Origin: Candidatus Undivivens industriae
GTDB taxonomy: Bacteria; Omnitrophota; Gorgyraeia; Gygaellales; Profunditerraquicolaceae
Assembly (NCBI GenBank): GCA_012514745.1
Contig: JAAYZR010000025.1
Location: 18,930 to 82,929, forward strand
DNA: 64,000 bases
Direction of reading: 5' to 3'
The notes beneath the pieces were generated by a model, which worked only from the letters and a program-made list of their open reading frames with translations, was not told the origin of the DNA and made no database searches. Within the stretch, counting starts at the first letter, position 1. Each line of letters begins with the position of its first letter. The position numbers and the translations under genes are program-made. Positions 6,724 to 58,849 of the stretch are shown here, in pieces.

Positions 6724-7922
6724 TAAGGCCTCCTGATCAAAAGAAAACCCATTATGAAGAAGACGGCGGCCATAGCCGCTTTTAAAACAGGAATTTTTCT
6801 GCTCACGAACGATGCCATCCTGGACGAAGTCACCCCCCAAAGGGCTATGGTAAGCACCGCGGCCAGAGGTAAGATGAACATTATATTGTAAAGAAAGAGA
6901 TAAAACCACGCTTTGGCCTTGAACTCCGCGGTCTTCAACACGAAGACGATCGTAGGCAGATACATCTGTCCGGTGCATACCGACTCCAGCAAAGAAACAA
7001 GGAATCCGGTGGAAAAAGCGGTCACGGCGTGCGCGCGCAGGCTGCGCCGTTCCAGCCCGGGGTCCCTTCCTCTGCGGTAAGAATCGCCTATGATTCCCTG
7101 TATCCTGGCTTTGACCGCGGCTGGAAGACGAAGCGCCATCTTATCGCCGCCTCCCCTGGAATAAAAAACGATTATGTCGTATACCGCCGCTACTCCCAGC
7201 GCCAGGCTGAAGATACCGAAAACGAAATTAACGGTGTTGGCAACCTGCCAGAACCGGTTAAGTTTATAGAGAAATCCGAATATGCCCAAACCGATCATTA
7301 CATAAGCGAAGAATACAGCCAGAATGAATACCGCACCCACGAAAAGCAGTTCTTTGCGGGAGTACTTCTGCAGGGCGAGGAACGAAATGAAGAAAACGAT
7401 CACGGTGAAAGCGCAGGGATTGATGCCGTCCACCAGTCCGGCGGAAACGATCGCCAGCATCCCCAGTCCGGCAAAGTTATCTTTGATATCCATCGGAGCG
7501 GACCCGGAGCCGGTTTTGCCCGCGGCACCGCCATTCTGTATGATCCTGCGCACGAACGATTCCGGCGGTTCCTTGCTTTTTCCGGACAGAAATTGCCCCT
7601 CAAGAAAAAACACCGGCCAATGATCGTTTTGCAGAGCATAATAATACTGCCGGCGCAGTGAGAGATAAAATTTATATTGTTCGGGCAGGCTTATGTCCAG
7701 TTCAACAACGTCAATCTTCTCGCCGAAAAGCGACCGCAGAGAAGGTAGAGTCGTCATCCTGGCATCGGCGCACTCCCTGCAGGTCGGAGAATAGAAGAAA
7801 TAAAGCTGTTTCTTACCTTTGTCCTGTGCCGGCTGCGCACGGACAGCGCTTATCCAGCCGAGCGACAGTAAAAATATACCGCATAGCGCAAGAACCAGAT
7901 CTACTCTTCCGCGACACCTCAT
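6723..7922 (-). CDS. DsbD/CcdA-like thiol:disulfide interchange membrane protein with N-terminal thioredoxin-like CxxC domain
   Basis: Signal peptide, then YSPTCRECADA (CxxC). Multi-TM CcdA-like core with GINPCAFTV and ESVCTGQMY cysteines. Confidence 0.7.
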   Translation of the reverse strand: MRCRGRVDLVLALCGIFLLSLGWISAVRAQPAQDKGKKQLYFFYSPTCRECADARMTTLPSLRSLFGEKIDVVELDISLPEQYKFYLSLRRQYYYALQNDHWPVFFLEGQFLSGKSKEPPESFVRRIIQNGGAAGKTGSGSAPMDIKDNFAGLGMLAIVSAGLVDGINPCAFTVIVFFISFLALQKYSRKELLFVGAVFILAVFFAYVMIGLGIFGFLYKLNRFWQVANTVNFVFGIFSLALGVAAVYDIIVFYSRGGGDKMALRLPAAVKARIQGIIGDSYRRGRDPGLERRSLRAHAVTAFSTGFLVSLLESVCTGQMYLPTIVFVLKTAEFKAKAWFYLFLYNIMFILPLAAVLTIALWGVTSSRMASFVSRKIPVLKAAMAAVFFIMGFLLIRRP

Positions 7923-7949
7923 CTGTCTTCCTTAGCGTTAAGTTCCGAG

Positions 7950-8075
7950 TTCCGGGGACACAATACTTAATTATACGGGGACACGATACTTAAAGAGTAT
8001 CGTGTCCCCGGAATTCAAGTAGTATAACATAGAGAAAGAAGTGTGGCTATAATTAAGTATTGTGTCCCCGGAATT
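7950..8075. repeat. Composite REP-like element between addB and the dsbD-like gene
   Basis: Two 23-25 bp copies of AATTCCGGGGACACAATACTTAATT in inverted orientation (7950-7972 and 8051-8075) flank a central 14-bp-stem hairpin (7977-8009). The addB TAA stop overlaps the first copy. Confidence 0.7.
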
Positions 8076-10944
8076 ACACGCACATCGCCCCGAACGGGCA
8101 ATAAGAACACGCCTGGGGGTCGCTTTTATCCGGGCTGAAAGGCACTTCCGGAGCCAGTATCCCGCGAGTAAAAAGAGATCCCAACGCCGACAAATAGTCC
8201 TTCATCGCTTCTTCCCGCGCCTGCGCCTGCAGATCGTCTCCGAAAAGCTTCATCAGCGCGGCCGAGCGGTCAGCGTCCCTGAGACTGTAAAGGGCGGCGT
8301 TAACCAGCCGAAATTCGGGGTAATCGCGGGAGGCGAAATAAACGTATACCGGAAGTTGGAAAGATCCGATCTCCTTCTTTATCTCTTCCCTCCCCGGAAA
8401 AGCGCCCGAGAAACGGAATTTGCCGCCCGGGACCTCCGCTCCTCCTGTTTTATAGTCCAGAACCATCAGCGATCCGTCTTCCAGGCCGTCTATCCTGTCA
8501 ACCCTGGCTTTGAACGACACATCCACGCCGGCTAAAGGAATGCTTCCGCGGAAATCCTTCTCCAAAGCCAGAAGAGAAGCCACCGGGCGCGCCCCTTCCG
8601 CAAGAAGGAACTTCTCAAGACGGTGACGCATTATCTCCTTGACCATAAAGGCGTCTGATTTCATACGCTTGCCGAGTTCGGAATCAAACTTTTTCTCGAA
8701 AATCCCGAAAAAGAAATCCCTGAACCTGCCGTCTATTAACGGCTTTCTGCCCAGGAAACCGCCGAACGTTTGTTCCAGCAAAGAGTGCAGGAACGTGCCT
8801 ATGTCGGCGCCGTCCGGGTCCTGCAAAGAGTCCTCTTTTTCCTTCAATCCCAGGACATAACGGTAATAGAATTTCAACGGGCAGGACAGGTAGGCGTTCA
8901 CCGATGAAGCCGAATAAGTCATGCCGTGAAGATGTTCGAGCACACGTTTGTTTTTCTCGATAACAACTCCCCGGGGGTTAAAACCGACATTGAATCCGGC
9001 CCTGGATACGGCCGGCTGCTGCCGGTAGCCGGAAAGTTTCTGCCGTTCCCAGACAAGCTCCTCTATAAAACGGCTTCTTTCATTCTCCGGGCATTCGCGG
9101 TAAACCAGGTTGACTTTCTCGGCGCCGGCGATGAGCCTGCGGAAGAGATACCGCTGTATCTCTTCTTCTTTCTCCAGCCGGTTGATGCCCAGGCTGATCA
9201 ATATCTCTCTGGGTATCAAAGGCTCGTAAAGGCGCAATCTTGGCAGATAGCGTTCGTTGGCCTCCATGACGATTATCTCGCGGAACTTAAGGCATCTCGT
9301 CTCCAGTAGTCCCAGTATCTGCAGCCCTTTCAAAGGCGATCCGCTGAAAGCGACGGACGCCTTTTCCAGTCTTTCCAGGAAAAGCGTGAACAGGTCCTGC
9401 CTGGAGAAGTCTTCCCCGGCAAAAGGCGCGGAAGCGAACTCCCCCGCTATGCGCAGCAATCTCTCGATCGCCGCCGAGTTCAAAGGATACGTCTCGAACA
9501 TGCCTCGCTGCACCAATGCTCCGGCAGCCTCTTCCAGAAGCAGCGAGAACGCCTTGATACTCTCCACCTTTTCCCATTTTCTGAAAAAAAGCCCGTGCAC
9601 CGCCGATAAGATTTGCGCAAGTCCGTCCCTGTCCGCCGCCTCTTCCGATTCCGCCGCGAGATCGTAGATCAAAGCGGTTTTCTCTATTTCATCGAGAGAA
9701 ACAAACAGTCTGCCTCCCAGATCGGAATCCAGCCTGCCGCGCAGGACTTCTTCCGTTTTATGCATCAATATTCTGGTCACCGAAGGCGCGTAAGAAAACC
9801 TGAGATTCTTCACCAGAGGATGCAATATCACCCGCAGGTAATCGGAGGCGTAATATCTGCCCGAAGCGTCCCTGCTTTCCTGCGCCTCGCAGACCGCCCG
9901 GAACAAAGAATAGACCGGGCTCCTTTTTAAAGGATACCCCATGGAAACGTTGAAATCATCCATCAGGCTTGAGACCTCGGACAACAACGGGACCAGTCCC
10001 TCCGGTTCAGGCAATACCACCGCCGTGCCGGAGAAACCGCCGTCCTTCTTCCCGGCAAGCAGACCGCGGACCACCCCGACTTGAGAATGCAGGTCGAATC
10101 CGGCATAAAGCGATATCTCGGGCGCCCTGACCGGGTCCGCGCGGCCTTCGCTCCGCGAATGGCCGAAAAACGACATGGTTTTGCTCAATACCGGCCACTC
10201 CCGCGGATCACCCTGGAATACCGGGACCGCCTGCCCGCGGGAATAAAGACTACCGATGATATTCTCCTCGCAGGAATGCAGATAGAACAACCCGCAGAAA
10301 TATATCCTCTCGAAACCGGGGACGGGCGCGCGGGCGGCGCACTCGGCCGCCCGCAGGTAGAGCATTCCGCGCGAATAACGCCTATTATCGGACTGATAGG
10401 CGTGATACTCTTTTCTTATTGAATTCACGCTTTTCAACAGCTTGTTGACGTGTTCCGGCACGTCGTAACCGATCTCGGCTTTAAGCTTCAGATCCTCCAG
10501 CACCGGTTCCTTTATTCCTTCCAAATCGAGCTGCTCTATCATATCCAGTATCTCCCCGGCCCAGGGATAAAAACGGGAAAAACTCTGCGCTCCGCCGAGG
10601 ATAGAAGGCGAGATACCTTTAGCCAGCGAATACACCAGATGCGCGGCTTCCAGCTCCGGCATGCGGGTAAACTGTTCGTTCTTCGAAACGATATGCGAAA
10701 TGAATTCGTCCATGGAAAAAAACGACGGCGGGTAAAAACTCCCGCCCAGACGGCGCGCCAGTTCCTTTTTCAAGAAAAGAGCCGGGCGTCTGCCCCCGAA
10801 GACCAGGGCGGCGCCGCCGAGCCCCGGGAAGGAACCGGCGGGAAATTCCCGCAGTAATTCATCCGCCAGGAAACTTATCATATCGTCTTCCATCCGCAGC
10901 AAGATCGTCTTATCCGCCACCGACCGCCTCCGTCTCCAGCTCAT
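8074..10944 (-). CDS. addB: AddB-like helicase-nuclease subunit (PD-(D/E)xK nuclease with C-terminal Fe-S cysteines)
   Basis: 956 aa with a C-terminal nuclease region ending CSYCPFGAMCV. Sits directly downstream of the UvrD-family AddA-like gene. The start is ambiguous between M1 (10944) and M18 (10893). Confidence 0.65.
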   Translation of the reverse strand: MSWRRRRSVADKTILLRMEDDMISFLADELLREFPAGSFPGLGGAALVFGGRRPALFLKKELARRLGGSFYPPSFFSMDEFISHIVSKNEQFTRMPELEAAHLVYSLAKGISPSILGGAQSFSRFYPWAGEILDMIEQLDLEGIKEPVLEDLKLKAEIGYDVPEHVNKLLKSVNSIRKEYHAYQSDNRRYSRGMLYLRAAECAARAPVPGFERIYFCGLFYLHSCEENIIGSLYSRGQAVPVFQGDPREWPVLSKTMSFFGHSRSEGRADPVRAPEISLYAGFDLHSQVGVVRGLLAGKKDGGFSGTAVVLPEPEGLVPLLSEVSSLMDDFNVSMGYPLKRSPVYSLFRAVCEAQESRDASGRYYASDYLRVILHPLVKNLRFSYAPSVTRILMHKTEEVLRGRLDSDLGGRLFVSLDEIEKTALIYDLAAESEEAADRDGLAQILSAVHGLFFRKWEKVESIKAFSLLLEEAAGALVQRGMFETYPLNSAAIERLLRIAGEFASAPFAGEDFSRQDLFTLFLERLEKASVAFSGSPLKGLQILGLLETRCLKFREIIVMEANERYLPRLRLYEPLIPREILISLGINRLEKEEEIQRYLFRRLIAGAEKVNLVYRECPENERSRFIEELVWERQKLSGYRQQPAVSRAGFNVGFNPRGVVIEKNKRVLEHLHGMTYSASSVNAYLSCPLKFYYRYVLGLKEKEDSLQDPDGADIGTFLHSLLEQTFGGFLGRKPLIDGRFRDFFFGIFEKKFDSELGKRMKSDAFMVKEIMRHRLEKFLLAEGARPVASLLALEKDFRGSIPLAGVDVSFKARVDRIDGLEDGSLMVLDYKTGGAEVPGGKFRFSGAFPGREEIKKEIGSFQLPVYVYFASRDYPEFRLVNAALYSLRDADRSAALMKLFGDDLQAQAREEAMKDYLSALGSLFTRGILAPEVPFSPDKSDPQACSYCPFGAMCV

Positions 10945-18020: not shown

Positions 18021-18129
18021 GAATTCCGGGGACACAATACTTAATTCGGTAACGAAGCCCGTTAGTACGCTGTTTGGCGAGACGAACTAATTTCTATTTT
18101 CGATTATCCGAAACTTTGGTAACAATGTA
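18021..18129. repeat. MITE-like element: 25-bp REP plus conserved module of about 85 bp
   Basis: REP AATTCCGGGGACACAATACTTAATT (18021-18045) is followed by a module that is about 80% identical to 62400-62468. The element ends exactly at the dnaE TAG stop (TAG-TACATTGTTACC). Confidence 0.6.
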
Positions 18130-27759: not shown

Positions 27760-27784
27760 AATTAAGTATCGTGTCCCCGGAATT
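27760..27784. repeat. REP-like repeat copy (variant GGGGACACGATACTTAATT)
   Basis: AATTAAGTATCGTGTCCCCGGAATT on the plus strand. The TGA stop of the gspL/pilMN-like gene overlaps the element (tTGAATTCCGGGG on the minus strand). Confidence 0.6.
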
Positions 27785-29184
27785 CAAATAACGAGCTCCA
27801 GTTCAAAATCGGTAAATTCCCCGTCCTTGGTCTTTTTTTTGCGGGTATATTTCGTCTGTATATCTTTGAAATATTTGGATTCCTCAAGGGTAGTCACGAA
27901 TTTATAAACGTCCGACAACTGGGGCCCCCTGCCCCTGATCTTTACGCTCCGCTGGTCCATATCGAAAGCGGTGACCGATATCTCCGCAGGAATGGCGTTG
28001 AACAATTGTTTCATAACCGATAACGGTTTGTTCCTGGCGGAGAGATAATCCCTGATGAAACCGATCTTGCCCAGCCTGCCGAACAATTCCCCCATATCTC
28101 CTTCTATTCCCGCAGCTTTGCCTTCAAGCTCCTGAAGATAATTCTGGCGGGCATACATCCTGGAAAGAAATACCGCGCATACAACTGTGAGTATGTATAT
28201 TAACGTGCTGCCTAAAACGAGCAGCAGCCGTATTTTTTCCTTCAAAGACTTGCGTATCTGTATTTCCGGCACGAGGAAAAAGAAACCTTCTTCCTCCTGG
28301 TGAGAGGCCAGGGCGGCGACCCCGGAAAAAGAAACGTCCCTTTTGCCCGGAGCGGCCATATTCTGCCCGCAGGGCGCCGAAAAAAGCGTGACCGGGATGT
28401 TAAGCTCCGAACCTACCGTAGAGCTGAAATGCCCGACAAGATCAGCCCCTCCCAGGAATATACGCGCCGGCTTGCGGTTGATCTCCTCGTTATAAAAAAT
28501 TATGAGCGACTGTTTCAACTCGCCTATGAGCTTGGATATACCGGCTTCCGGAGTCATCTCGATGTCCCTGGCGCCGATGTTTATACTGCGGGTAAAAATA
28601 AGCTTATCGCGGTCGCAGATAATAAAATCCGTAAAGTCACGGTCCACATCCAGCAAAATATAGATATCCTGTCCGGAAAGTTCCCCGCGATAGACGGAGA
28701 CCACCGATCTCCACACCCCGTATGAACTCAAGCTAACCCTGTCGATGAAAAGGCCGGCCTTTTCCAGCATATTCACCTGTTTTCTCACCGCCCCGATATT
28801 GATGATCGCCAGAAGCACCTTGCCGTACCCCATCTCGTCCACGCCGAGAAAACTGTAGGAATAAATGATCTCCTCTTTTTTGTAGGGAACGATCCTGACC
28901 ATGTGCAGTTCTACCATCTCCGCTATTTCTTTTGGGTCCTGAGAAGGCAAATGCAGGTTCCTGACGGTAACCAGGCTGCGCTGCAGGCAGAGCGTAGCCT
29001 TTCCGGGGACAATCTTGTGGCGGTCAAGCAGTTCAGCCGCTTTTACGGAGATCTGCTCGTCCGTGAGCGAAACTATGTTCTCGGAAAGACAAAGCGAATC
29101 CCTAAGTCTGCCTTCGTTATCCGGGAAGCCGGAAACAAGTTTCAGGCTGGATTGGTCTATTTCTATGGCAACGGGTGATTTCAT
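27784..29184 (-). CDS. GspL-like / PilM-PilN fusion (cytoplasmic actin-like ATPase fold + TM + periplasmic domain)
   Basis: 466 aa. N-terminal PilM-like actin-fold region, one TM (LLLVLGSTLIYILTVVCAVFL) and a C-terminal PilN/GspL periplasmic region. Confidence 0.6.
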   Translation of the reverse strand: MKSPVAIEIDQSSLKLVSGFPDNEGRLRDSLCLSENIVSLTDEQISVKAAELLDRHKIVPGKATLCLQRSLVTVRNLHLPSQDPKEIAEMVELHMVRIVPYKKEEIIYSYSFLGVDEMGYGKVLLAIINIGAVRKQVNMLEKAGLFIDRVSLSSYGVWRSVVSVYRGELSGQDIYILLDVDRDFTDFIICDRDKLIFTRSINIGARDIEMTPEAGISKLIGELKQSLIIFYNEEINRKPARIFLGGADLVGHFSSTVGSELNIPVTLFSAPCGQNMAAPGKRDVSFSGVAALASHQEEEGFFFLVPEIQIRKSLKEKIRLLLVLGSTLIYILTVVCAVFLSRMYARQNYLQELEGKAAGIEGDMGELFGRLGKIGFIRDYLSARNKPLSVMKQLFNAIPAEISVTAFDMDQRSVKIRGRGPQLSDVYKFVTTLEESKYFKDIQTKYTRKKKTKDGEFTDFELELVI

Positions 29185-29238: not shown

Positions 29239-29690
29239 TAAATTCCGGGGGAACCTCGCAAATACAGTGATTCTCTTTCGAGAATCCCTTGCGACCTTTC
29301 GCTCCGCTCTGTACCTTAGCCTAATCTAAATAGCCCCTTGCCCTTATGCGGAATTGGGCAAGTGTTCCCCCGTGGGAAGCGAATTTTGCCACTGCAAAAA
29401 TGTATCCCCGGAATTTGTTATAGCTTTCGCTTTCCCTTCTCACAGCAACAAATCAATGCTTACCTCTATTCTACAAATTCCGGGGGAACCTCGCAAATAC
29501 AGTGATTCTCTTTCGAGAATCCCTTGCGACCTTTCGCTCCGCTCTGTACCTTAGCCTAATCTATAACACCCTGCCCTAATTGAGAAACAGGTGTTCACCA
29601 GTGTGAAAGTATTCCCCAGCGATAGCACCTTGCCCTTATGCGGAATTGGGCAAGTGTTCCCCCGTGGGAAGCGACTTTTGCCACTGCAAA
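29239..29690. repeat. Duplicated intergenic module (A1-B1 ... A2-B2) between gspF and the gspL-like gene
   Basis: Unit A (about 88 bp; 29241-29328 and 29476-29563) and unit B (about 64 bp; 29336-29400 and 29628-29690) each occur twice at over 95% identity. A1-B1 is bounded by inverted AAATTCCGGGGG / CCCCGGAATTT ends (29239-29251 and 29408-29421) that share the REP core. Confidence 0.7.
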
Positions 29691-29698
29691 ATTCGGGT

Positions 29699-39380: not shown

Positions 39381-42300
39381 CTATTTAAACTCGAACCACG
39401 TCTGAGTGACGGGTTTATTGGCGATGTTGTCTATCATCTTCTGGTTGATGTCCATTACCGCCTTCAATTCCTGGGTTTTGTTCTTCAAATAGGTCATATC
39501 GCTCTTTTTCTCTTCGTTGACCTCCAGAAGCTTTTCCAGGCTGACGTTCTGTTCCGTGCTGACTTTCTTCAATTCCCTGCCGATATTTACCAGCTGCATG
39601 TAAACCGAATTGATATCGGTAGCGCTTCCCGCCACCTCCTTGACCTGATCTACAAGGTCTTTGCTGATCTTGCCCAGGGCCGACTCTATCACGGCGAACT
39701 GGCTGCTGAGAGTATCGGCGACTTTTGAAAAGTTATTCAGGCCGGATGTGGTGCCGAGCACGGCGGAGACCTGCCCGGCTATCTGCTCGATGTCCGAACG
39801 GATCACCGAAATGATCATCGCGTCCAGAGAGCCGTATGTGGATTCCGAACAAACGACTGTAAAATCACCCCTGCCCCAGCCGGAAGAGACGGTAATGGTG
39901 TATTCGTAGATACCTCCGGAGACCTCGGTCATCACGCCTTTAGACACGCGCTGGACGTTATTCGGGTCGTAGAAGTCCACCGTCGGCTGGACCCCCGGGT
40001 ACGTCCGGTAACGCACCACCAGGTCCGTGCCGCTCCTGACCGAATTCTCCCGGTTCAATATCTCCGATCTTATGTCCGTTTCCTGCTGCCGGCGCTCCTC
40101 CTCTATCTTCTCGGGGATGTCGGTCTCGGTGGCGGTGAGTATCCTGGCGGTATCCTCCCTTATCTCCTCCTTGGCCTGAGTGATCTTCTGCGGTATGTCC
40201 TGCGTGACCTGTGACTGAATGGTCGCGGTCTGCGTCTGCAGGTTTTGCAGTATGGCCGTCTGGCCCTTGGCGGTCAATTCCGTCGTTACGTCTATCGAAG
40301 CCCCGGAATTGTAAGTGCTGCCGCGGAAGACGACCGTGGATTTGACGAAATAAGTCTTGCCGGAAGTAAGGCCGGTATCGGCCCAGGTGAACCAGAAGGC
40401 GCCGTTGCCGTCCGGCGTGCCGGAGGTCAATGTCTTTATCAACGTTTCCCCGTCGTAAACGCTTAAGGTCGCGGAAGTGAGATCCGCCCTGTCGATGTCG
40501 TTCAAGCCCACGATCTTTCCCCTTCTTTCCAGCCAGGAAGAGGCGCTGATGGTATCGGTGGCGGAGTTGTAGGCCGTGGAAAGCAGGACGTGCCACTCGA
40601 TCTGCGCGCTTATGGAATTTTCCAGCAGGAGCGTGATGCTTTTATTGCCGTCGGCTATCCAGTCCGTGCTTCTTTCTATATAACCCTCTTTCGACCAGAA
40701 GGTGGTGTAATGCCCGTAGGGATACTCCTGCGTGACCGGACAGATAATGGTAGCGCTGGGGTCGGACCACCAGGTATCCCTGACGCTGAGGTTCTGCAAA
40801 TTATCCATATTATCGTAATCCTTGACCATCCAGGTGATCCGGTAATAGATGATGTTGAAAGAAGGCGATACGGAATAGACGGTGTCGTCCGTCGGGTCGG
40901 AAACCTTGAGCAACGCCTTTTGCCCGTGGTAATCCGGAGGCGCCCAGGTATAGACGCCGGTATTTGGAGTGCTGGTAACTATGGTCGTCCAGGTGTTCCC
41001 GGCATCCACGCTGTAATCAAGCTTGACGTTGGGGATCTGCCCTCTGGTCTGCCAGGTGACGGAGCGCGGTTCGTTAACCGCCCAATCGATGTTCGCCGCA
41101 GGATAGGTTATATTGAATCCGCCGCGTATCCTGAAATTGTTGTTTGAGGCGTCCGAGATAACGGTGCGCGTGGGATCATATATCTTTATCTTCAGGGTAT
41201 TGACGCAGATGGTGTCGTCCGGGATCACCCAGTTGTAACTGCCGGTATTAGGCGCCCCGGTCTTTATGGTGTGCGTGGTGGCGAAATTATCGGAAGAATA
41301 AACTATGGTCAGCGGATTGATCGACAACCCTTTGCTGGTCCAGGTGATGTTCACGCTGTCTCCTACGACATACTCCTCTCCGCCGTTGGGAGAAGTAACG
41401 GCGATCTGCGGATATTGCAGGACGTTGAATGCCTCCGAGGTGGCAATCGTCGCCGGCCGGTTGCCGTCCACGATGCGGATCTTCATATTGTTGGTCGGTT
41501 CGTCCGGCACGCTCCAGTTATAGCTGCCGTCGTTCGCCTCGCCCACACCTATCGTTTCTAAAGTGATGAAGTTATCGGTGGAATACTGCAGCAGCAGATT
41601 ATCGCTGACCGCACCCTCGGAGACCCAGGTGATGACCGCCGGGTCTCCTACAGCCCAGGAAGTGGCGGAGACCGGAGCGGTAATGGTTATCTTGGGATAA
41701 TCGATGATGAATGCGGCGTCCGAATGATCGACTGTGGTGGCGCGCTGGTTGTCGGTTATCCTCACCACGGCGTTGACGGAATAATCCTCGGGAATGGTCC
41801 ATTCGTAAGAGCCGCTGTTGGGGACCCCGCCGGATATCGGTTTCCAGTTCGAGCCGCCGTCCACGGAGTATTGAAGCACAAGGTTGTTGCTCAAGGGGCC
41901 GCCGTTATCGTGCCAGGTGATATTGTGTTTGGTTCCTATCCTCCACCTTTCGCCTCCGTTGGGGGAATCGATGGTAACCACCGGGAACGGCAGGATCGAA
42001 AAACCGGCGTTGGACTTATCCGTTATCTGGGGGACGGAATTGTCGGTGATCCTGACCCTCAAAACGGTAGAAAGGACTTCCGGGACGCGCCAGATATAGA
42101 CCCCGGTGTTGGCTACGTTATCCGCGATCTCGTTTATGTCCAGCACGAAGTTGTCGCGGGAATACTCGATCTTCAGGCTGTTGCTGACCGTCCCCTCCGT
42201 GGACCAGGTGATGTTCTCGTTGTCGGTGACCACGAGGATTTCCCCGCCGTTCGGCCGCGTAACCGTGATGATGGGATACGCTATGGAAAAGACGGTGTCG

Positions 42301-45300
42301 GTCGTATCCTCGATATACGGAGGTTCATTATCCTTGATCTTGATCTTGCAGGTCGAAGAGATATTTTCCGGAACGTTCCAGGCGTAGGAATGGTTGTTGG
42401 TAGGCCCGCTATAGACCGGCAGCCAGGTTGTTCCGCCGTTGACGCTGTAGGTAATGGTCACGTCGTCGGAGACCTGCCCGATGATATTCCAGAGTATCTC
42501 ATGGTTTGTCCCGTAAGGCCAGGCCTCCCCGCCGTTGGGCGTGGTGATGGTGATACTGGGAGCGGATATCTTGAAGACCGCGTCGGATGTATCCTGCGTC
42601 GCGGTGCGGGAATAATCGTATATGCGCACCTTACAATTATCCGAAATATCGTTCGGTATATGCCAGATATAGGTACCATCGTTGGGAATACCGCCGGCAA
42701 TGCTTTTCCAGGTGCTGCCGTTGTTGACCGAATATTGCAGAACGAGATTGTTGCTGATTGAATTATGGTCCCCGACGGAAGTCCAGGTCACGGGGTAATC
42801 GATGCCGACCACCCATAATTCACCTCCGTTGGGGGAGGTCAAAGTCAGCGAGGGCGCGATGATGGAGTTGTTATTTTTGGATTCTCCTTTGACTCCGGGC
42901 TGAGAGTCATCGGAGACTCTGATCTTCAACTCGCTGGTAGGCGAATCGGCGGTCTTCCAGGAATAACTGCCGCTGTTGGCCAGGCCGCCGCTGATCATCT
43001 GCCAGGTGCTCCCGCCGTTGACGCTGTATTCAAGTTTGATGGCGTTCAACCCGATGCTCCCCACCGACTCCCAGGTAATACTGTAGGTCCCGGCGGCGTA
43101 AAGAGACTCCCCGCCGTTGGGCCAGGTAAGCGTAAGCTGCGGTTTCTGAATGGTGAAGTCGGCGTCGGAAGAGTCTTCCACCCAGGGGAAATTCTCGCTA
43201 TCGTCGCATTTGATCTTGATCCTGGCGGTGCTGATCTCCACCTCCGGAGGTATCCAGAAATAAGAACCGTTATTGGGCCTCTGGTCGGAAATGACCTCAT
43301 AATGCTCGCCGGAATCGGGAGAGAAATAAACGGTGAGGAACTGGTCGTCCAGGGCATCCCCGATGGTGAACCATTTAACCTCATAGGGGGCGCCGATGGT
43401 GGTCTTTTCCCCGCCGTTCGGCTGCACCAGCACGATTATAGGCTTATCCAGCACCTCGAAATAGGCGTCGCTTTCATCAAAGACTTCCGGCCTGCTGGTA
43501 TCGGTTATCCTGATCTTGACGTTGCCGCCTACAGCGCCCTGAGGTATCACCCAGGAGTAACTGCCGTCGTCCGCCTCGTCCTCGGAAACCGCCGCCCAGT
43601 TCTCTTCCTCATCCACGGAATATTCTATACGCAGGGCGTTCTCTCCTATGGCCCCGTCCGAAGACCAGGCGATCTCGCGAGTATCTCCTCTCACCCACTT
43701 CTCGGAACCGTTGGGAGAGGAGAGCTTGATCGTCGGCAGTGTAATGGTGAAATCGCCTTCGGACGCGGTCTCCATTTGGGCCTGGGTGTCCCTTCCCGGC
43801 GGGACGGCGGTCTCCGCGATGCGGATCCTCACCCGCGAAGAGAGGACGTTCGGGACCGTGCAGGCGTAGGTCCCGGTGTTGCTCACCGATGACTGCAACA
43901 GCGTCCAGTTCGAGCCGCTGTCAACGGAATAATACACGTTAACCAGCGGATTGACGTTACCCCTGTTGTCCCAGGTGATATCCTTCGCGCTGCCGGCTTT
44001 CCACACCTCTCCTCCCACCGGAGAAGTGATGGTCATGGACGGTTTCGGCACGATGGAAAAGACGGTGTTGGAACGATCGGTAATATTGGTATTGTTCATA
44101 TCCGTGATGCGCATTAAACAAACGGAAGAAATATAGCTTTCCCTGTTCGGTATATTCCAGGTGTATAACCCGTTATTGATACGCTGGTCGGCGACCGGCG
44201 GATAGAGCCAGGTAGTCCCTCCGTCGAGCGAACATTCTATCTTCAGGTTGTTGGATACGGTGCCGTAGGAAGACCAGGTGATATTGTGCGTGGAACCGAT
44301 CTCCCACTGATTGCCGCCGTTGGGAGAATTCAATATCAACCCCATTATACCGAACGCGGCGTCCGAAGTATCCCGGATGGCGGAATACTTCTTGCTGGTT
44401 ACCCTGATCAGGGCGTTGGGAGAAGGATTGTTCGCCACCTGCCACTCATAAGCGCCGTTATTGGCCAGATTATCCACTATCAGCATCCAGGTGGAGCCCC
44501 CGTCGGTGGAATACTCGATCTTTACCTGATTATCCGCCCCGTCGATACCCTGCGACGTCCAGGTTATCAAAACGGTGGTGCCGATAGGCAGGGACTCTCC
44601 TCCGTTGGGGGAGGTTATCGTCAACACGGCGTCGAGATAAGAAAATCCCACGTTCTGCAGGACCGGGGTCTCCTGCCCGTAGGAATTCAGTACGGCCTTA
44701 TACTGCACCCAGCGGTCGTTAACGATATCGGAATTCAGAAAATTGACTAAGCTTCCGGAGGGCGTGATGTAATAAGTCGGCTCGGAAGTGGTAAAAACGC
44801 TGACCGTGTCCAGCAGAGGCGTGCCGACGCCGTCGGCGGAATTCAGGAAAGCGCGGAAAAAGAATTCCCCGCTGGGGAATTTTGTCTGGAAAGCGGCGAG
44901 ATTATTATTGATCTCCGGGGCCTCGTTGGTCTGGCTGAACCCGCCGCTCACCTCCTTCCAGGCGGTCCCGTCCCACCAGTGCCAGTTGTAACCGTCGCAG
45001 GAAACCTGGTACTTGATATCGGTGTCCAGCGGTATGGTGTTCACTTCCTGGAAAGCCGTGAGGTTATTGTCATAGAACACCCCCAGCACCGGCTGGATGA
45101 CCGGATTGGTGGTGTAATAAACCTCCATACCGGTGGGATTGGCGGTCTCGGTAAAGACGAAACCCACGTAAGGCTTGACCACGGCCTTCTTATAGACCAT
45201 TATCTTGTCCACGTAGATGGCATCGCTGGAAGAGCGTATGGTCGGCTTTATCGCCAGGCCCGGGCCCGCTACGTATCCGGCGTTATAGGTGAGCTTGTCG

Positions 45301-48300
45301 CCGGTGCTCAACTCGAAGATTACCTGGCCGGTCTGTCCGTTCAGCGTGTCGTGCGGTTTCCAGGACATCTTGTCTTTGTTCCACATGGCGAAGGTATACG
45401 GCGTGCGTATAGAATTCCAGGTCGTGTAGCCGTTGCCGGACTCGGCGTAATAGTAACCGTTGGAACTGATCAACACGTCGTAACCGGCCTTGTAATTGGA
45501 ATTGTTTATGCCGGTGGAGACCTTGGCGTTGGGGTCGCAGATGCCGATGAAATGCCTGCCGGTCTTGTTGGCCGTCTGCCAGGTCACCTCGGTGGTGATA
45601 TCGTAATTCGGGCTGACGTTGGATTTCGCCTGCAGATAACCGTTATGCGCGACCTTGGCCACGCTGCGGCCGCCCTGCGTGGTATCGGTAAGGGTGAATC
45701 TCCAGAAAAGGCTGTTCAGAGAAACCTCGGCGGCATTATCGAAGGTGCCGCTGATGGAGGCGCTCGTGCCGCCGGTAACGGAAGAAGGCAGAACCGGCCC
45801 CGAGCTCAATTGGAATTTACAGGCGATATTGAACAGTGCCGCCGGCGCCGCGGAACTGGAAAAGAGCTGGTTATTGTTCTGGTCGAGGACTGCCCATGAC
45901 CAGGAATAAAGATGCCCTGCGGTCAGGCCGGAAGGCATAGTTATGGAAATATTGCTGATTGTGCTGGTCCCGACCGGTACATTGAAGGTGGTACTGTCTA
46001 TCTCCTGGAAAGATGCCCCTGTGTCCACATCGGTCAGCGTGAAACGGAATCTTAATCCGTTCATGGCTATGGAATAGTTGTTTGTAAAGGTGCCGCCGAT
46101 GGTAGTTATGACCTGCCCCGGCGCCACGTTCTTCTCCATAAAAGGACCGGCCGTCATTCTCAAAAGGTCGTGGTAAAGGGTGAACGGCTGCGCTATACTC
46201 TGCGCCTCCACCAGGGCGCCGTTGGGCCAGCGCAGTTCCCAGTACCAGTCATACGTCCTGCCCGCGACTATGCCGGAAGGGATAGCGACCGTGGTCGAGA
46301 CCGTGCTCGCGCCGGCGGAAAGGTTAAAAGGGCTGCTGTCCATACCGAAGATAGAGGAAATAGTGGTCAGGTTGCAATACTGCGAATCCCATTTGTCCAA
46401 TCCGGCGTCGAAATCATCGAAAAACTCGAAAACGCCGTCCCCGTCGCTAAGGCTGGCCGCGTCTGCCTTGCCGTAATACATATAGATGATCTTCTGCTCC
46501 GTGTACGGCAATACCGGTATCTTCACCCAGAAACGCGCCTCTTTCCCGGTATAAGAGAAAGATTCCGCGTAATAATTCAGCAGGGCGCTTCCGTCTCCGT
46601 CCACGAAACGCACATCCCCGCCGTCGGCCAGGCAGTGCAGCCAGAAATCCCTGTGGTTCTTGTCCACGTCCACCGCCACCTGGAAATCGGTGAGCTCTTG
46701 CGTGTTCAAGGTATTGTCTATCTTGATGGTCTCTTTGTAAAGCCAGCCGGCAAGAGCGGGGCCGTCCGCGGGTTCCTCTTTCGCCACCAGGTAGGTGGAG
46801 ATAAGGTGATTGAACTCCGTGGGTTTCAACACCGGGGTGATCGCCTCTCCGTAAGAACTGTAGGCGTAAACGGCGAACTTTTTCGTGCCGGTCAAATGAA
46901 GGTTGCGCCAGGTGCTCCCGGGATCGAGAGTAGCCATACCTCCCCTGGCCGAAAGGGTCAAAGTGGTGGGGGACGGGCTGATGTCCCCGGTGACGGTGAT
47001 ATTGTTGGCGCCTTCTTCATAATCTATGAGCTTCAGATAACGCGCGCCTCCGGTATTTATATAATAATCCTTGCCCACGCTCACCAGTGTATCGGCGCTC
47101 TGATAGATCTGCCCCTTGCCTCCGTTCATATCGTCTGCCACCGCGCACAGCGGCTTGTCGGCGCTCAAACGCGCGCGCAGGGTCATGGCGCTCCCGGAGT
47201 TCGGGATATGCCTGTAACTCTGCCCTTTGTTCAACGTGCCGCTGTAATCCCCGGTGACCCCGTCCAGATTGTCGAAAACGATGTTGGTGTTATCCTCATA
47301 GGCGGTAAAGGTAACGTTGGCGTCCGGGCAATAGAAATAATACTCCCGCATATCGGGAGAACGCATCTGCTCCGAGGAATCGCCGTGGCCGATCAGCCCG
47401 GCCTGGACCGTGACCGGCTTGGTCGCCTCTATATGCCAAACCTCGCCCCTGGAATCCACCCTGTTCCAGCCGAACCAGAAATTTCCGGCGTCAAGCGTCA
47501 GGGTGCCGGTATCGTCGCCCTTGCCGTAGTCGGTGATCTTGATCTGGGTATCGTCGTTGTAGGCGGTGATGATCACGTCCCCGTCGTAGTTGTAAGCCGG
47601 ACACCAAAGCCAGAGGTCGTTGCCGCTGGCGGTGTAGTAATCGTCGTCCGAGGTGCTGCTCGGTTCTATGGATGAGGCGAATAAGGTAATCGGTTTCTGG
47701 GAATAGACGTGGTAGCAGGTCAGCGCCGTGTCCGTGTATCTCTGCGTTTCTCCCACGGAGGTGAAGTCCAGGAAGGTGGATGCCACCACCTGGCCTTCGG
47801 CGTTCAGTTTCTCTATATAGACGCGGTTGGGGGCATCGGTGGAGATGATGTCGAGGAAAGTGAAGGTCAGGGCGTAGAAATCAGTGCCTATCATAGATTC
47901 CGCCAGACTGGCGTCCGATTCCGAAGTCGCGCTCCATTTACCGTATAACAGGTATATCTCTTTTGCCGTCCCCTGCGGGATACTCGGCACGGTGACCCAG
48001 CAGGAGGCGCTTTTTTTGTCCTTGCTGAAACCCATTACGCGGTATTTCAAAGGCGTTTTGCCGTCGGAATCGGTGAAACGGATGTCGGAGCCGTCGTCTG
48101 CCACATGGTCCCAGAAGTCTATGTCCGCCGAGGGGATCTCCACCTTGACGGTGGTATTTGCGTAGGAGGAGCTCCCCGATGTGTTATCTACCACGATCTT
48201 CTGCCGGTAGAGATAATCTGCCAGCACCTTGGAGAGTTTAGCCGTGCCTGCGGAAAGCACCACCTCGGAGGTGTTGGCGTATTCATAGGCATTCTCGAAG

Positions 48301-51300
48301 TCATAAGTAATTTCCTGCACTCCCTCCGGGCCCAGCCAGGAAGACCAGGCCCCGGGAGAACCGTTGGAATCAGGCGCGGTGCGCATCTGAAAACGGATGT
48401 CGGTACCGGAAGGCAGCGTGGAGGTCCAGAAAAGGCTTTTCAGCCTGTCGGTGGTAAAAGTGGTGTCGTAAGCAGTGGAGACAAGCGTTTCCTGCGCTGG
48501 ATACTTGTTATAATTTATGGTAATACTATCCATCTGCGGCGGGCTGGCAAGGTCGTAGCAGAAGAACCTAAGCCTGTATTGCAGGTATTTGTCCTTGTCG
48601 TTCACCGAGCTGTATGAGGACAGGTCCCTACCCTTGGTTATCTTGCCGGCGTATCCCCAGGCAATGGCGTCGGATAAGGAACTGTTGTTTCCGGTGCGCA
48701 CGCGCACCTCGATCTGCCCCTGGGAGTTATCCTGCCAGGTAACGGCACCGTATCCGGCGTTGTTGCCGATCTCCTTTATCTCCGAGGTGTATTCCCCGGA
48801 AGAAAACAGCAGATACTTCATCAGCGAATAGTTGCCGTATCCGCTGGAGACATAGATGTAATCACCGCTGCCGGGATACATGGCGTTGGCCTGTCCGTCC
48901 ATGGAAAAAGGCATATCCTCGTTCTTCTCCCAGGTATTACTGCTGATGGAATACCTGTAAAAATACGGGGTGCCATAGGCAATATCGTAATTATAGGAAA
49001 CAAAAAGATAGATATAGTCGCCGAACCCGGGGCTGAACAGGCTCGCTCCGACGTTGAGCATCGGCAGAACGGTCAATGTTGACCAGGTGTTGGCCACCGT
49101 ATCGTATTTCCAGAAAGCGGTGGAGCCGTTGCCCGGAGTAACGTAGATGTAATCCCCGCTTCCCGGATATACCAGGTTTGCTCCCAGAGCACAGGCGGAA
49201 GGAGCTGAAGCCACTTCCTTCCAGTCGTTGTTGGCGATCGAATACCTCCATAAGGTAGTGGTGGAACCGCCGCGCAGGACGTAAATATAACCGTCTTTAT
49301 ACTCGATCGCCTGGCCGGTGGAGAAAGTGGCGGGCGGGGCGGCGAGGTTGGTCCAGAGGTCGGTGCTCACCGTGTATTTCCAGAAATCGGAATAACCGCG
49401 CCCCCTGGTAACGTAGATGTCGTCTCCTGTGCCCGGGTAAACGCTCTTGGAATCGTAATAAACGCCCGAAGGCGTGGATTGCAGGGTGTACCACACCGAG
49501 GAAGAAAGATTGTATTTATAACAGGAGGTGGAGTTGCCGCCGCGCAGATAGAATACGTCGTCCCCGGAAGGCATCGGGCATATCGAGGCCCCGTAACTGG
49601 CGCTGGCAGGATAGACTATGGTTTCGTCCCACCTGTTCTGGCTGATGGAATAACGGTTGAAATTAGTGCCCAAATCTCCGTGCCCGGTGCCGAGATAGAA
49701 ATAAATGATATCACCGCTGCCCGGGTAATAACCGCCCGGCATACCGGAGACGGAAAGCGGGGCCTCGGTAAGAATAGTCCAGGAGTTCTGGCTTAAGGAA
49801 TACCTGGCGAAATCCCTGCCCCCGCCCTTCAGGCAGTAGAGATAATCCCCCGCGCCCGGATACATCAGATAACAATAATCGGCGATAGACCAGGGGGCGT
49901 CGGAGAGATATCCCCAGGTATCGCTGTCAATACTGTATTTAGTGAATTTGACCGCCCCGGCCTGTTTAAGCATATAAATACCTTTATACGGGCCGTCGGG
50001 GATGAGACAGGTGCCGTTGCCCTCACTGGAGATCCCCTCCAGCATCGAGGTAAGCGCGACCCAGGAACCGCCGGACTCGTCGTCAGTGAACTTGAGAAAA
50101 GTGGTGGAGTTATAGTACCCGGGGCAGACGTAGATACTGCTTTCGTCGCTGACCATACGCGCGCCATAGGTGAACATATAGGGGCTGGAATTTATCTGCA
50201 TCCAGATCCCGGTCTCGGTGTTGTATTTCCAGAAATTCTTGTTCATATTCCCTTCCGAGACATAGATGTAATCCCCGCTGCCCGGATAAACCGCCCTGTG
50301 CCCTGCCCCGTGCACGATAAAGGGGAGTTTTATAAGATTCACCCATTTTTTTCGGCTGATAGAGTATTTCCAGACGTAGTTCGACCATCTGTTCGAGAAG
50401 AGATACATATAATCGCCTTTTACCACCAGACTACCGGAGACGTTCCTGCCCGGCCCGAAGTTATAATTCACCAGCGGATTGTTCCACTCTCCTGTGGCAA
50501 AAGTATAAGTCTGCACTCCTCCATATCCGTAGTAACCTACGTTATACAACTTTGTGTCGCTGGCGCACAGCTTGCCTTTTTGAAACACCGGAGGGAAAAA
50601 AAGCGTCTGCCAGGAATTGGTGGATATATTGTATTTAAAGAAAGCTCTGCGAAATTCCAGGTTGCATGCCCCTCCCTCGCTGTAATAAATGGCGTTCTCG
50701 GAAGATGAATAAACGAGTCTCCCCTGGCATTGCGACCTCCAGCAGTCGGGAAGGTTGGCCCTGCGCTCCCAGGTACCGGTAGAGAGCCTGTAACTCATGA
50801 ACTCCGTGCGGGCACTGGCGCGGAACATATATATGTAATCCGAACCGTCGTAAGCGGCGCAGACCCCGGTCTGAAAGGTCCCGTAGGGATTGGTGCTCAC
50901 CGTGGCCCAGGCGCGGCCGGTTTTATCGTACCTGTATAGATTCGCGGTATAGGTGACCGTGCCGCCGGTATTATTCCTGCCTCCCAGACAATACACGTAA
51001 TCATCCGTAACCACCAGCCTATTCCCCCCATAAGCCAAGTTCTGCGGCAAGGCCGGCAGCTGTTCCCAGCTCTGGGATGTGAGACTATAGCGGGAAAATC
51101 CATCCTGCTCATACCCCTGGAGGCAATATATATAATCATCTCCCTGTTTATACCCCAGACATCCTCCTCTGTGGATTCCTAAAGTATTGCCGGCGAAAGT
51201 AACATCCGAAAGCTTCTCCCATTGAAAGGAGACTGCGGTATTGCTGGAATTGACGGGATTGAAAGTAAGGAAATACCGATAGAAGTTTCTGGTGCCTTCG

Positions 51301-53562: not shown

Positions 53563-54137
53563 CTGACGGCCCCTCCGGATTTATATATGTAAAGCGCTCC
53601 CGTCAACACAAGTATGACCCCTCCCGCTCTTTTTATGACGTGCCTGTGCGGCGCCACCCTCCCCAGCAGACCGGCTGAAACAAATCCCAGAGAAAGATAG
53701 ACCGAAGAGCTTAAGGCGTAAGCCAGCGAAACAAGCATGCCCTGGAACAGCTTTGTGCCCAGTATCAAAGGCACAAGATAAATGTATTTTCTGCCGGGAT
53801 TCAGCATACCCCGCATAAGTCCCATCCCGAACCCCACCCTGCCCTGCAGAGAGCCGCCGTTTTTTTCCCGGTGATTCCCGACGGACAAAAGGGAATATAT
53901 CCCCATTGCGGCGACCGCTATGCCGAACAGCAGATTCACGGCCCTTTTATCTATAGTCAAAGAACGCCCCAGCAAAGCGACTATCAGGCCGAAAATGAGC
54001 AGACCGATCAGCCTGCCGAGAAGGAATTTCAGGCCCGCGTACCTGTCCGATAGAGTGAGCCCGAAAGCCAGGAATGGGCAGATGAACAGCCCTTCCGCGG
54101 ACAACCCTATCACCAGCGCCGTTAATATCCTCTCCAT
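53559..54137 (-). CDS. Polytopic membrane protein (about 6 TM), unknown function
   Basis: 192 aa, hydrophobic throughout. Overlaps the downstream radical SAM gene by 4 nt. Confidence 0.5.
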   Translation of the reverse strand: MERILTALVIGLSAEGLFICPFLAFGLTLSDRYAGLKFLLGRLIGLLIFGLIVALLGRSLTIDKRAVNLLFGIAVAAMGIYSLLSVGNHREKNGGSLQGRVGFGMGLMRGMLNPGRKYIYLVPLILGTKLFQGMLVSLAYALSSSVYLSLGFVSAGLLGRVAPHRHVIKRAGGVILVLTGALYIYKSGGAVR

Positions 54138-54155
54138 ACGCTCTGCCCGCCCTTT

Positions 54156-54695
54156 TCAATGGCACTTAAAACTCTCCACGATACCCCGGAATTCGCTTTT
54201 AGTGACCGTTCCCAGCAGATCCAGAAAAAGGAATTGCCTGCCGGTCTCCGGACAACTGAAGCGGCAAAGCAGTATCTCCTCTTCGGAAGACTTCCCGCAG
54301 GGGCGCGTAACGTTCACGCTCCCTTTCGAGAAAGATACCGCGTGCCCGTTTACCCGGGTCTCTTTATCATCCTCACGTTCTCCGGAAGAAAGCCTATACC
54401 TTTCCGCGGGGAAAAAAGACATTACCTCCTGTCTCTGTTTTCCCCAGGAAACGGCGAATAAACGCTCGAACATCCCCCGCTCTGTCGTGCTTACGAAGAT
54501 CACCGTCCCTTTCTCTTCGCCGCCTTCCACCGTTTCCGGAGGAAGGAACGCGGGGACTTCAAAACTTATGTTGCTGTCCTTCTTCCGATCTATCTGTCTC
54601 TTGTCGCCGGCTCCCGGAGCGTCCTGCGCGGCTAAAAGCAGAAAAACCAGGGACAAAAAGAACGTCCATGAGCTTCTGTATCCGGGGATTCTCAC
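54156..54695 (-). CDS. Secreted hypothetical protein
   Basis: Signal peptide WTFFLSLVFLLLAAQDAPGA. The GTG start overlaps the stop of the upstream HUH gene (GTGA). Confidence 0.45.
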   Translation of the reverse strand: MRIPGYRSSWTFFLSLVFLLLAAQDAPGAGDKRQIDRKKDSNISFEVPAFLPPETVEGGEEKGTVIFVSTTERGMFERLFAVSWGKQRQEVMSFFPAERYRLSSGEREDDKETRVNGHAVSFSKGSVNVTRPCGKSSEEEILLCRFSCPETGRQFLFLDLLGTVTKSEFRGIVESFKCH

Positions 54696-55678: not shown

Positions 55679-55716
55679 TTTCACTCCTCTATGCGTGGCA
55701 CGCCGCCGCAAAACAT

Positions 55717-55743
55717 AAAAAAAACCGGGCAGTCCTGCCCGGG
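55717..55743 (-). terminator. Intrinsic terminator (candidate riboswitch expression platform)
   Basis: Minus-strand CCCGGGCAGGACUGCCCGG followed by U8. Lies about 30 nt after the aptamer-like segment and 27 nt upstream of the RBS/ATG at 55678. Confidence 0.7.
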
Positions 55744-55774
55744 ATCGTCAAATCAAGCATATCCCAAGTCTTCG

Positions 55775-55862
55775 GCAGTCTGCCGTTCCTTATAAACAGC
55801 CAAGGAAGCATGACTTTGCGCCCTCCGGTTACCCGGAGTTTGCCTTTTCGGATCGAGATACA
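55775..55862 (-). ncRNA. c-di-GMP-I (GEMM)-like riboswitch aptamer
   Basis: Minus strand: AAAAGGCAAAC-UCCGGGUAACCGGAG-GGCGCAAAGUC-AUGCUUCCUUGGCUGUUUAUAAGGAAC-GGCAGAC. This parallels the Vibrio cholerae Vc2 aptamer, whose sequence is given here from memory: GGGCAAACC, a P2 hairpin with GNRA tetraloop, GACGCAAAGCC, a P3 hairpin, then GGUAGC. Confidence 0.55.
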
Positions 55863-55876
55863 ATCTACCTGTATAA

Positions 55877-55904
55877 AGTATACCACAAATAGCGCTTTTA
55901 TCAA
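55877..55904 (-). promoter_or_regulatory. Extended -10 sigma70-like promoter driving the riboswitch leader
   Basis: Minus strand TTGATA-16 nt-TATACT, with TG immediately upstream of the -10 hexamer (TGGTATACT). The predicted TSS is near 55870. Confidence 0.45.
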
Positions 55905-57017: not shown

Positions 57018-57036
57018 GTTTCTCTCCTCTCGACTG

Positions 57037-58818: not shown

Positions 58819-58849
58819 TCCCACCTCCACAGCGAAACAAAGCCGCTCT

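Follow-up and report, generated by a model that had tools for sequence, protein, structure and literature searches.

The window analyzed here is a 64-kb stretch (64,000 nt) of the genome of Candidatus Undivivens industriae, a member of the Omnitrophota (contig JAAYZR010000025.1, positions 18,930 to 82,929), and it carries dispersed copies of a 25-nt repeat, AATTCCGGGGACACRATACTTAATT. We regard these 25-mers as very probably the terminal inverted repeats (TIRs) of a TIRtron. In the sections consulted of Di Nocera, De Gregorio & Rocco (2013, BMC Genomics 14:522; PMC3733652), TIRtrons are RAYT-like genes with long terminal inverted repeats that are not repetitive extragenic palindromes (REPs), and their enzymes are called TIRYTs. 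The element proposed here would be approximately 0.8–0.9 kb long and would consist of one RAYT-like HUH/Y1 gene between two inverted copies of the 25-mer, with AATTCC outward. Our confidence in the mechanistic details is far lower than our confidence in the identification. With this assignment, a puzzling intergenic repeat of an uncultured phylum would take its place in a defined class of mobile elements.

When both strands of the window were scanned, the 21-mer CCGGGGACACRATACTTAATT was found six times at zero mismatches, at 7952-7972(+), 8051-8071(-), 18026-18046(+), 27760-27780(-), 58854-58874(+), and 63942-63962(+), and once with three mismatches, at 7975-7995(+). No match occurred in 100 dinucleotide-preserving shuffles of the window. 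The 14-nt core GGGGACACRATACT occurred 8 times, counting both arms of the 7977-8009 hairpin, compared with 0.53 expected occurrences. The flanks of the copies gave the complete 25-mer unit, in which an AATT prefix precedes the 21-mer. Thus, the repeat family reported in a preliminary description of this DNA is real, with six exact 21-mers and two truncated hairpin arms. Its coordinates were right overall, except that the copy placed at 18021-18045 was off by one and lies at 18022-18046. The repeat copies and the features that belong to them are as follows.

7941-7947, plus strand: AGTTCCG, a 7-nt partial duplicate ("stutter") of flank and outer end that adjoins the first copy on its outside
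7948-7972, plus strand: full end copy AGTTCCGGGGACACAATACTTAATT, starting with AGTT instead of AATT; its outer end, 7948, is 25 nt from the start of a 399-aa gene (7922)
7977-7993, plus strand: left arm of the inner hairpin, GGGGACACGATACTTAA, a truncated copy without the outer AATTCC
7996-8015, minus strand: right arm of the inner hairpin, reading AATTCCGGGGACACGATACT on the minus strand, a truncated copy without the inner TTAATT
8051-8075, minus strand: full end copy, the outer AATT of which extends into the TAA stop of an addB-like gene (8074-10944)
18022-18046, plus strand: solo end copy between dnaE (stop at 18130) and a gene with an RNase_T domain; outer end toward the downstream gene
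27760-27784, minus strand: solo end copy, G variant; its outer end shares bases with the TGA stop of a PilM/PilN-like gene (27784-29184)
58850-58874, plus strand: solo end copy between a secretin gene (stop at 58941) and a TPR gene; an orthologous copy is present in the Omnitrophota genome WOFB22 (locus L054)
63938-63962, plus strand: solo end copy; outer end 5 nt upstream of the ATG at 63932

The inventory consists of four solo ends and one nested end-pair group at 7948-8075. All of these would be nonautonomous derivatives, the group being an end-pair without a gene, inside which another, truncated end-pair forms a hairpin. Scanning the window for the 8-mer core yielded no further TIR-like copies, and inspection by eye of the inner flanks of the solo copies found no degenerate partner copies. 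An Rfam scan of the whole window matched nothing at the repeats, its sole match being a riboswitch elsewhere, and no tRNAs were found in the window.

In the end-pair group, copies 7948-7972 and 8051-8075 pair as the outer stem of a nested palindrome. The region 7935-8085 folds at -68.8 kcal/mol as RNA (z = -10.2) and at -46 kcal/mol as DNA (z = -12.5), in agreement with the compound palindrome described earlier at 7950-8075. A role of the copies as terminators had also been proposed, and this intrinsic-terminator reading of the cluster was dropped: a terminator scan of 7700-8300 returned no site and no terminator-like T-run after the hairpin. A single 25-mer showed no self-complementarity, with a minimum free energy of 0 kcal/mol on both strands.

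The repeat is not restricted to this locus. When one genome per species was scanned for the exact 21-mer, at least 112 stretches (loci) of other genomes matched; the counts given below for copies and pairs refer to the matches listed. Among 161 unique copies, conservation spanned exactly positions -4 (AATT, 79–98%) to +21 and collapsed outside these limits. The first base beyond +21 was A or C in 136 of the 161 copies, and no signal was found farther out. Because these limits are abrupt over 161 copies, the unit is sharply bounded.

The arrangement of the copies shows that the ends have a fixed polarity, with AATTCC outward. Inverted pairs with their TTAATT ends inward were found 27 times at gaps of -5 to 86 nt and four times at gaps of 699–789 nt; in the opposite arrangement, no pair was closer than 284 nt. 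The four pairs spaced by approximately 700–790 nt (L038, from the Omnitrophota genome WOFB22, and L065, L005, and L103) enclose a gene of 200–233 aa with a Y1_Tnp domain, so that inverted copies do bracket Y1/RAYT genes in other genomes. The ends of these four loci differed from the consensus 19-mer by 0–2 mismatches, and each locus had at least one exact 21-mer copy; their TIRYTs were approximately 47–50% identical to one another. A further element, L093, had variant ends, GGGGACATGATAC, and C-terminal gene fragments adjoined a right end in L008, L020, L027, L056, and L074. The element layout is a left end, 30–110 nt to the ATG, the gene, and a right end that adjoins the stop codon or shares bases with it; the TAA stop of L005, for example, is within AATTAAG of the right end.

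The enclosed proteins matched Pfam Y1_Tnp and scored 54–64 bits against NCBIfam REP_Tyr_transpos, which is below the 80-bit cutoff. H61, H63, and Y120 were invariant in the protein alignment, and we take them to be the HUH motif (H61/H63) and the catalytic tyrosine (Y120). The closest solved structure to the TIRYT profile was Escherichia coli TnpA-REP (4ER8, E = 1e-5), ahead of ISDra2 TnpA (E approximately 0.004). A Pfam search of the C-termini of three TIRYTs, with E values up to 10, found no helix-turn-helix (HTH) match. The alignment had a conserved C-terminal GRP motif, and this could be the "short version" of the extension that the sections consulted of Quentin et al. (2018; PMC6006769) mention for TnpA-Y1 subclass 2.1, the subclass with which they equate TIRYTs.

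Two details of these elements were observed in addition. In WOFB22 (L038, 4990-5090), the TIRYT stops at ...FIEKLKN and the conserved tail, LTGKILYKQKPGPKK..., continues in another frame, so that this gene would be either a frameshifted pseudogene or an assembly error; the same element has two left-end copies (4172 and 4283) and adjoins a tRNA-like sequence. In L065 (6682-6716), L115, L118, L124, L135, L145, and L176, a TTGAC word starts in or just after the left-end TTAATT, 34–35 nt before the ATG, and this points to a left end with its own promoter and to a leaderless mRNA for the transposase.

A second set of elements was selected by the protein alone. For 80 metagenome loci whose proteins were 43–58% identical to the L038 protein, the best 19-nt inverted repeat between the upstream and downstream flanks of each gene was searched de novo. 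An inverted repeat with at most two mismatches was found around most genes, and 56 elements had a GGGGACA-like core on both ends. The left end was usually 33–39 nt from the ATG, most often 36 nt. The majority consensus over the 56 elements was GGGGACACAATACTTAATT, identical to the window sequence. Thus, the repeat is linked to TIRYT genes in many genomes, whether loci are selected by the 21-mer or by the protein.

The ends in this sample were not uniform. GGGGACA was near-invariant, each position being conserved in at least 85% of the 112 ends, whereas positions 8–10 varied (C/G, then any base, then A/T), with TAC and TTAATT favored. Left and right ends agreed at 17.0 of 19 positions within an element, compared with 13.0 of 19 between elements. 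End similarity was weakly correlated with protein similarity (r = 0.23), a value reached in 30 of 2000 permutations. The left-right agreement and the correlation with the protein indicate that the ends coevolve with each other and with the transposase, as expected of recognition sites. We rejected the idea of an end ultra-conserved across the whole protein family, since the ends vary outside GGGGACA and covary left to right; the window 21-mer is the consensus allele of the family and not a universally fixed sequence.

The same elements bear on whether the repeats could instead be the ends, or the miniature inverted-repeat transposable elements (MITEs), of a conventional insertion sequence (IS) with a DDE transposase, the association with Y1 genes being coincidental. 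Inverted repeats of 25 bp at the termini, together with short end-pair derivatives, are the typical look of DDE ISs and MITEs. However, no direct repeats were found outside the ends of the elements compared, and where the outermost 4 nt were not AATT they varied as complementary bases at the two ends (L182, L144, L150, L191, and L188). The elements thus lack a target-site duplication, evidence against a DDE transposase. In addition, the sole gene between full-length end pairs in most protein-selected loci was a Y1 gene, at a fixed distance. We consider a DDE origin extremely improbable.

The taxonomic spread of the exact 21-mer was wide, with metagenome-assembled genomes (MAGs) labeled as more than 10 phyla among the matches listed. 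The labels were Omnitrophota (many bins), Gamma-, Alpha-, and Zetaproteobacteria, Desulfobacterota-type bins, Bacteriovoracaceae, and Planctomycetota, as well as Clostridia, Elusimicrobia, Desantisbacteria, Saccharibacteria, Spirochaetota, Nitrospirae, and WOR-3. One isolate, Kordiimonas lacus, was among the matches listed. Several matches were on contigs of 0.1–3.8 Mb, and binning errors therefore cannot account for all of the spread. A vector was not found among phages or plasmids: the exact 21-mer had no match in 2.9 million viral contigs, and TIRYT relatives in 72,556 plasmids reached at most approximately 43% identity.

We determined the position of 182 copies from 112 other loci relative to genes. 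Most copies (166) were outside long predicted open reading frames (ORFs) and 16 were inside one, which supports the reading of the copies as a dispersed, mostly intergenic family. The outer end was toward a stop codon in 84 cases and toward a start codon in 67. Of 151 outer ends, 51 had an ORF end within 20 nt; of 143 inner ends, 15 did. In the window, the outer (AATTCC) end was always the end nearest a gene, stop or start alike: outer ends overlapped the addB-like and PilM/N-like stops and were 5, 25, and approximately 32 nt from likely starts. Two earlier observations, that the addB TAA and gspL-like (PilM/N-like) TGA stops overlap the first bases of a copy and that a copy lies just before the ATG at 63932 (a spacing we measured as 5 nt), are therefore sound, but the stop/start polarity relative to genes that was read into them reflects which element end faces outward and not a relation to transcription. 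Targeting of stop codons was also rejected, position -5 being T in 30% and G in 37% of copies, without a strong TAA/TGA signature. Most simply, elements would have inserted into short gaps between genes, and what lies on the inner side would be present or former element interior.

The outer end was also distinguished by stutters. In approximately one-fifth of the exact copies (28 of 140), flank and outer end were partially duplicated in tandem one to four times, immediately outside the outer end, a few of these cases being chance word matches; the stutter word was found on the inner side in just 10 of the 140 copies. On the inner side, the repeat recurred within single genomes together with the same adjoining sequence or hairpin loop (L096/L084, from the Clostridia bin WJOT01; L107; L012; and L045/L034). 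The recurrent inner sequence of L096/L084 was TTAATT followed by a[tc]gtgaaaaaaaggg.tcagagtcattttttta, and one Elusimicrobia bin had recurrent caacag/ctgttg loops. The combination of repeat and constant inner sequence suggests lineage-specific nonautonomous units that multiply as a whole.

Two of the window sites could be compared with relatives, and both were occupied there. Window positions 53743-61333 (7.6 kb) were 91–92% identical to L054, from WOFB22, in which the 58850-58874 copy was present at the same site with 24 of 25 nt identical (A>G at the R position); inward of this copy, the window and WOFB22 could not be aligned. A second locus, L193, was 93.9% identical over 4 kb and had the 7948-8075 cluster at the same site, with approximately nine substitutions and two indels over approximately 150 nt, including a 39-nt insertion inside the first copy. 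One stutter unit differed between the window and L193: the 7-nt duplication AGTTCCG (7941-7947) was absent at the orthologous site. The window copies were thus inherited and at least some are decaying. Neither site was empty, and any recent mobility would be hypothetical; the insertion polymorphism that the preliminary description looked to in related strains was found at neither site.

The cluster is also located at a synteny break. The closest homologs of the 399-aa protein beside it were from Omnitrophota. In the relatives L194 and L195 (81% and 68% amino acid identity), the 399-aa gene directly follows an operon of PilM_2, a 191-aa gene, and a 149-aa gene, with no repeat between them (window 7923-8073 compared with L194 2990-3001 and L195 2901-3001). 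These upstream genes had no homolog in the window, where addA/addB-like genes are found instead, and the cluster therefore stands where synteny breaks. A rearrangement between the 7950-8075 cluster and the 27760 copy was considered and rejected, as the data show a break at the cluster only and not an inversion between copies.

The comparison with relatives is also where an explanation independent of mobility can be weighed, namely that the copies are host-exapted cis elements under selection, acting as protein-binding sites, as stabilizers or attenuators at mRNA 3′-ends, or as operon punctuation. Nearly all copies are intergenic and between co-directional genes, the 58854 copy has kept 24 of 25 nt in WOFB22 while its inner-side DNA has become unalignable, and the structure that the cluster adopts in the addB 3′ untranslated region is very stable. 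On the other hand, a lineage-specific regulator does not explain why the same 21-mer is found beside transposase genes in unrelated phyla. The orientation relative to the flanking gene is mixed and no T-run terminator is present. The changes in the L193 cluster match the 93.9% regional average and therefore give no sign of extra constraint. Selection of this kind is, in our judgment, a very unlikely explanation of the family.

The preliminary description compared the repeats to REPs and bacterial interspersed mosaic elements (BIMEs) and pointed to a Y1 gene in the window, of the class that mobilizes REPs. This gene (54692-55678, minus strand) has a Y1_Tnp domain, an HVH motif, and a tyrosine in the expected helix, and its protein scored 66.6 bits against REP_Tyr_transpos, without reaching the cutoff of 80. 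These features, together with the clustering of copies into a compound palindrome, are what classical REP/BIME elements mobilized by the local gene would lead one to expect. However, single units are not palindromic and have no GTAG/CGTC tag. The window Y1 protein was approximately 26% identical to the TIRYTs that carry the ends, and no repeat copy flanks its gene, the nearest being approximately 3.2 kb away. The protein has a long C-terminal extension in which a hydrophobic segment and then a lysine/glutamate-rich helix were recognized by eye; it looks like a transmembrane segment followed by a coiled coil and is possibly membrane-anchored. Upstream of the gene, a c-di-GMP-I-GGC riboswitch match (Rfam RF03167; 55770-55853, minus strand) scored 60.4 bits, compared with a gathering score of 59 (E = 9e-12), and a hairpin with a T-run was found at approximately 55710-55740. 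In WOFB22 (L054), the gene is syntenic and 90% identical at the amino acid level.

Because it is unflanked, distant in sequence, extended, preceded by a riboswitch, and conserved in synteny, the window Y1 gene looks like a regulated host gene and not the transposase of this repeat. A riboswitch-controlled, possibly membrane-anchored HUH protein is unusual in itself. We consider it very unlikely that the repeats are classical REP/BIME elements moved by this gene. The preliminary description was partly right in spirit, in that the repeats are tied to RAYT-like HUH/Y1 transposases, and wrong in detail, in that the unit (minimum free energy of 0, neither tag) is not a REP and the local gene does not look like the mobilizer. 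Its nearness alone is no ground for casting this Y1 gene in that role.

If the 25-mers are TIRtron ends, the following sequence of events could be envisaged. By analogy with TnpA-REP and IS608 TnpA, a TIRYT encoded elsewhere in the genome would recognize the invariant GGGGACA core and use its HUH/Tyr active site to nick single-stranded DNA at the outer boundary. This nicking biochemistry is established for those two enzymes and not for TIRYT. Inverted ends would pair on one strand into a single hairpin that joins both boundaries, as proposed for REPINs (REP doublets forming hairpins), and the hairpins with loops of 4–86 nt would be a REPIN-like mobile unit. The TIRYT would move or copy such end-pairs, and solo ends would be decay products or one-ended products. 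The window copies would most likely be passive relics, and the nested palindrome, located between addB and the next gene, could have an incidental role as an RNA or DNA structure.

Several points weigh against the TIRtron interpretation. No TIRYT gene is present in the 64-kb window, so that a cognate enzyme in this genome is hypothetical. The TIRYT of the related genome WOFB22 (L038) appears frameshifted near its C-terminus. Both comparable window sites, 58854 and 7948-8075, are occupied in relatives, and no insertion polymorphism was found. The phylum spread comes mostly from MAG bins, and some short contigs could be mis-binned. An enzyme of the Y1 type, specific for single-stranded DNA, is not expected to need inverted ends, and the mode of recognition (duplex or two-end hairpin) is therefore conjecture. 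Finally, we know of no experimental demonstration of TIRtron transposition, including in the sections of the TIRYT literature consulted.

A more ambitious joint reading can be formulated. The 25-mer would be the ancestral, near-optimal recognition sequence of one promiscuous lineage of single-stranded DNA transposons that has crossed more than 10 bacterial phyla while its transposase diverged to less than 50% identity. The orphan ends of Omnitrophota would have been taken over by the host, for example as substrates of the Y1 paralog 54692-55678, and the stutters would be footprints of repeated HUH nicking. We attach a very small probability to this combination. If the takeover by the Y1 paralog were true, DNA processing at dispersed sites would be connected to a signal of the cyclic-dinucleotide type.

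With respect to the TIRtron class itself, three features would be testable additions: a 25-nt family consensus found unchanged under many phylum labels, end-pair hairpins that resemble a REPIN equivalent, and outer-end partial duplications that may mark the site of enzyme action. The identity of the window sequence with the family consensus, the presence of the exact 21-mer across more than 10 phylum labels, and the outer-end duplications seem to be new. The sequence AATTCCGGGGACACAATACTTAATT would be an obvious substrate for any TIRYT biochemistry.

The remainder of the window is ordinary chromosome, with nearly all genes on the minus strand. It includes addA/addB-like nuclease-helicase, thyX, glgC, dnaE, and guaA/guaB genes, as well as type II secretion, pseudopilin, and ATP synthase genes. 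A single ORF of 4439 aa (39381-52700, minus strand) coincides with the only stretch of positive plus-strand GC skew. At 29240-29698, between the PilM/N-like and T2SS-F genes, a tandem duplication was observed, with blocks of 89 and 70 nt repeated at distances of 235 and 292 nt. The ends of its unit 29240-29416 are AAATTCCGGGGGAAC... and ...GTATCCCCGGAATTT; the outer 11 nt are shared with the repeat and the interior is different, and this unit may represent a small element in its own right with an outer end in common with the repeat. Another Omnitrophota bin (L080) gave the only partial matches to it. A second lineage-specific module, cggcaacggttacggtaacgaagctcgtttcggttctcggctacggttaccaatagagttcaac, was often next to the inner end of the repeat in Omnitrophota, followed by tandem tcctcccc-atgggga-like units (L048 1721-1783, L049, L051, L054 5248-5575, and L001). 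The window has only fragments of this module, at 18047-18075 and 63963-64000.

The repeat and its elements can be compared with known systems. DDE ISs and MITEs have target-site duplications flanking their inverted repeats, and none was found here. Members of the IS200/IS605 family (IS608 and ISDra2) are similar in having a Y1 HUH transposase, no target-site duplication, and a small size. They differ in that their ends, which lack inverted repeats, are subterminal hairpins located on a single strand in direct orientation, whereas the ends described here are inverted and unstructured, and the TIRYT profile matched ISDra2 TnpA weakly.

Similarity to REP/BIME-RAYT (TnpA-REP) systems and REPINs (Nunvar 2010; Bertels & Rainey 2011; Ton-Hoang 2012; Messing 2012) was greater. 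In both cases a short repeat is dispersed through intergenic DNA, mostly between co-directional genes, and inverted copies of it also flank a Y1/HUH gene; inverted doublets fold into long hairpins; and the structure closest to the TIRYT profile, 4ER8, is that of a REP transposase. However, a REP unit is an imperfect palindrome of 20–40 nt, defined in the sections consulted of PMC3733652 by a GTAG or CGTC tag at one palindrome end, whereas AATTCCGGGGACACRATACTTAATT is unfolded and has neither tag, and only pairs of units form hairpins. The elements considered here, like TIRtrons, occur in genomes without classical REPs. REPs are lineage-specific, whereas the exact 21-mer is common to several phyla. 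REPIN-RAYT systems have been reported as mostly vertically inherited.

The closest correspondence was with TIRtrons. In a search of open-access PMC and bioRxiv literature, the names TIRtron and TIRYT were confined to PMC3733652 and PMC6006769; two 13-mers of the repeat had no match in the searchable literature, and 10-mers matched unrelated primers only. Omnitrophota and the other uncultured phyla found here are not among the species described in the sections consulted of these papers, nor do those sections state the 25-nt consensus, its verbatim recurrence across more than 10 phylum labels, the promoter-like TTGAC in the left end, or the outer-end stutters. Subclass 2.1 proteins are described with C-terminal extensions similar to Bac_DnaA_C, HTH_23, or HTH_28 (PMC6006769), whereas no Pfam HTH was detected in the three TIRYTs searched. 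Each feature of element architecture that was tested agreed with TIRtrons. According to the same sections of PMC3733652, many TIRtron ends are equidistant from the gene and share GGGGWSAS, and copies of the ends make up families of moderate abundance, in which they stand singly, as dimers, or in groups. The sequence GGGGACAC, present in every window copy, fits GGGGWSAS; the related loci and most protein-selected loci, although not the window, have a RAYT-like Y1 gene between nonpalindromic inverted repeats at a near-constant distance; the encoded proteins match Y1_Tnp and keep the invariant histidine pair and tyrosine; and the copies are likewise dispersed as singles, dimers, and groups.

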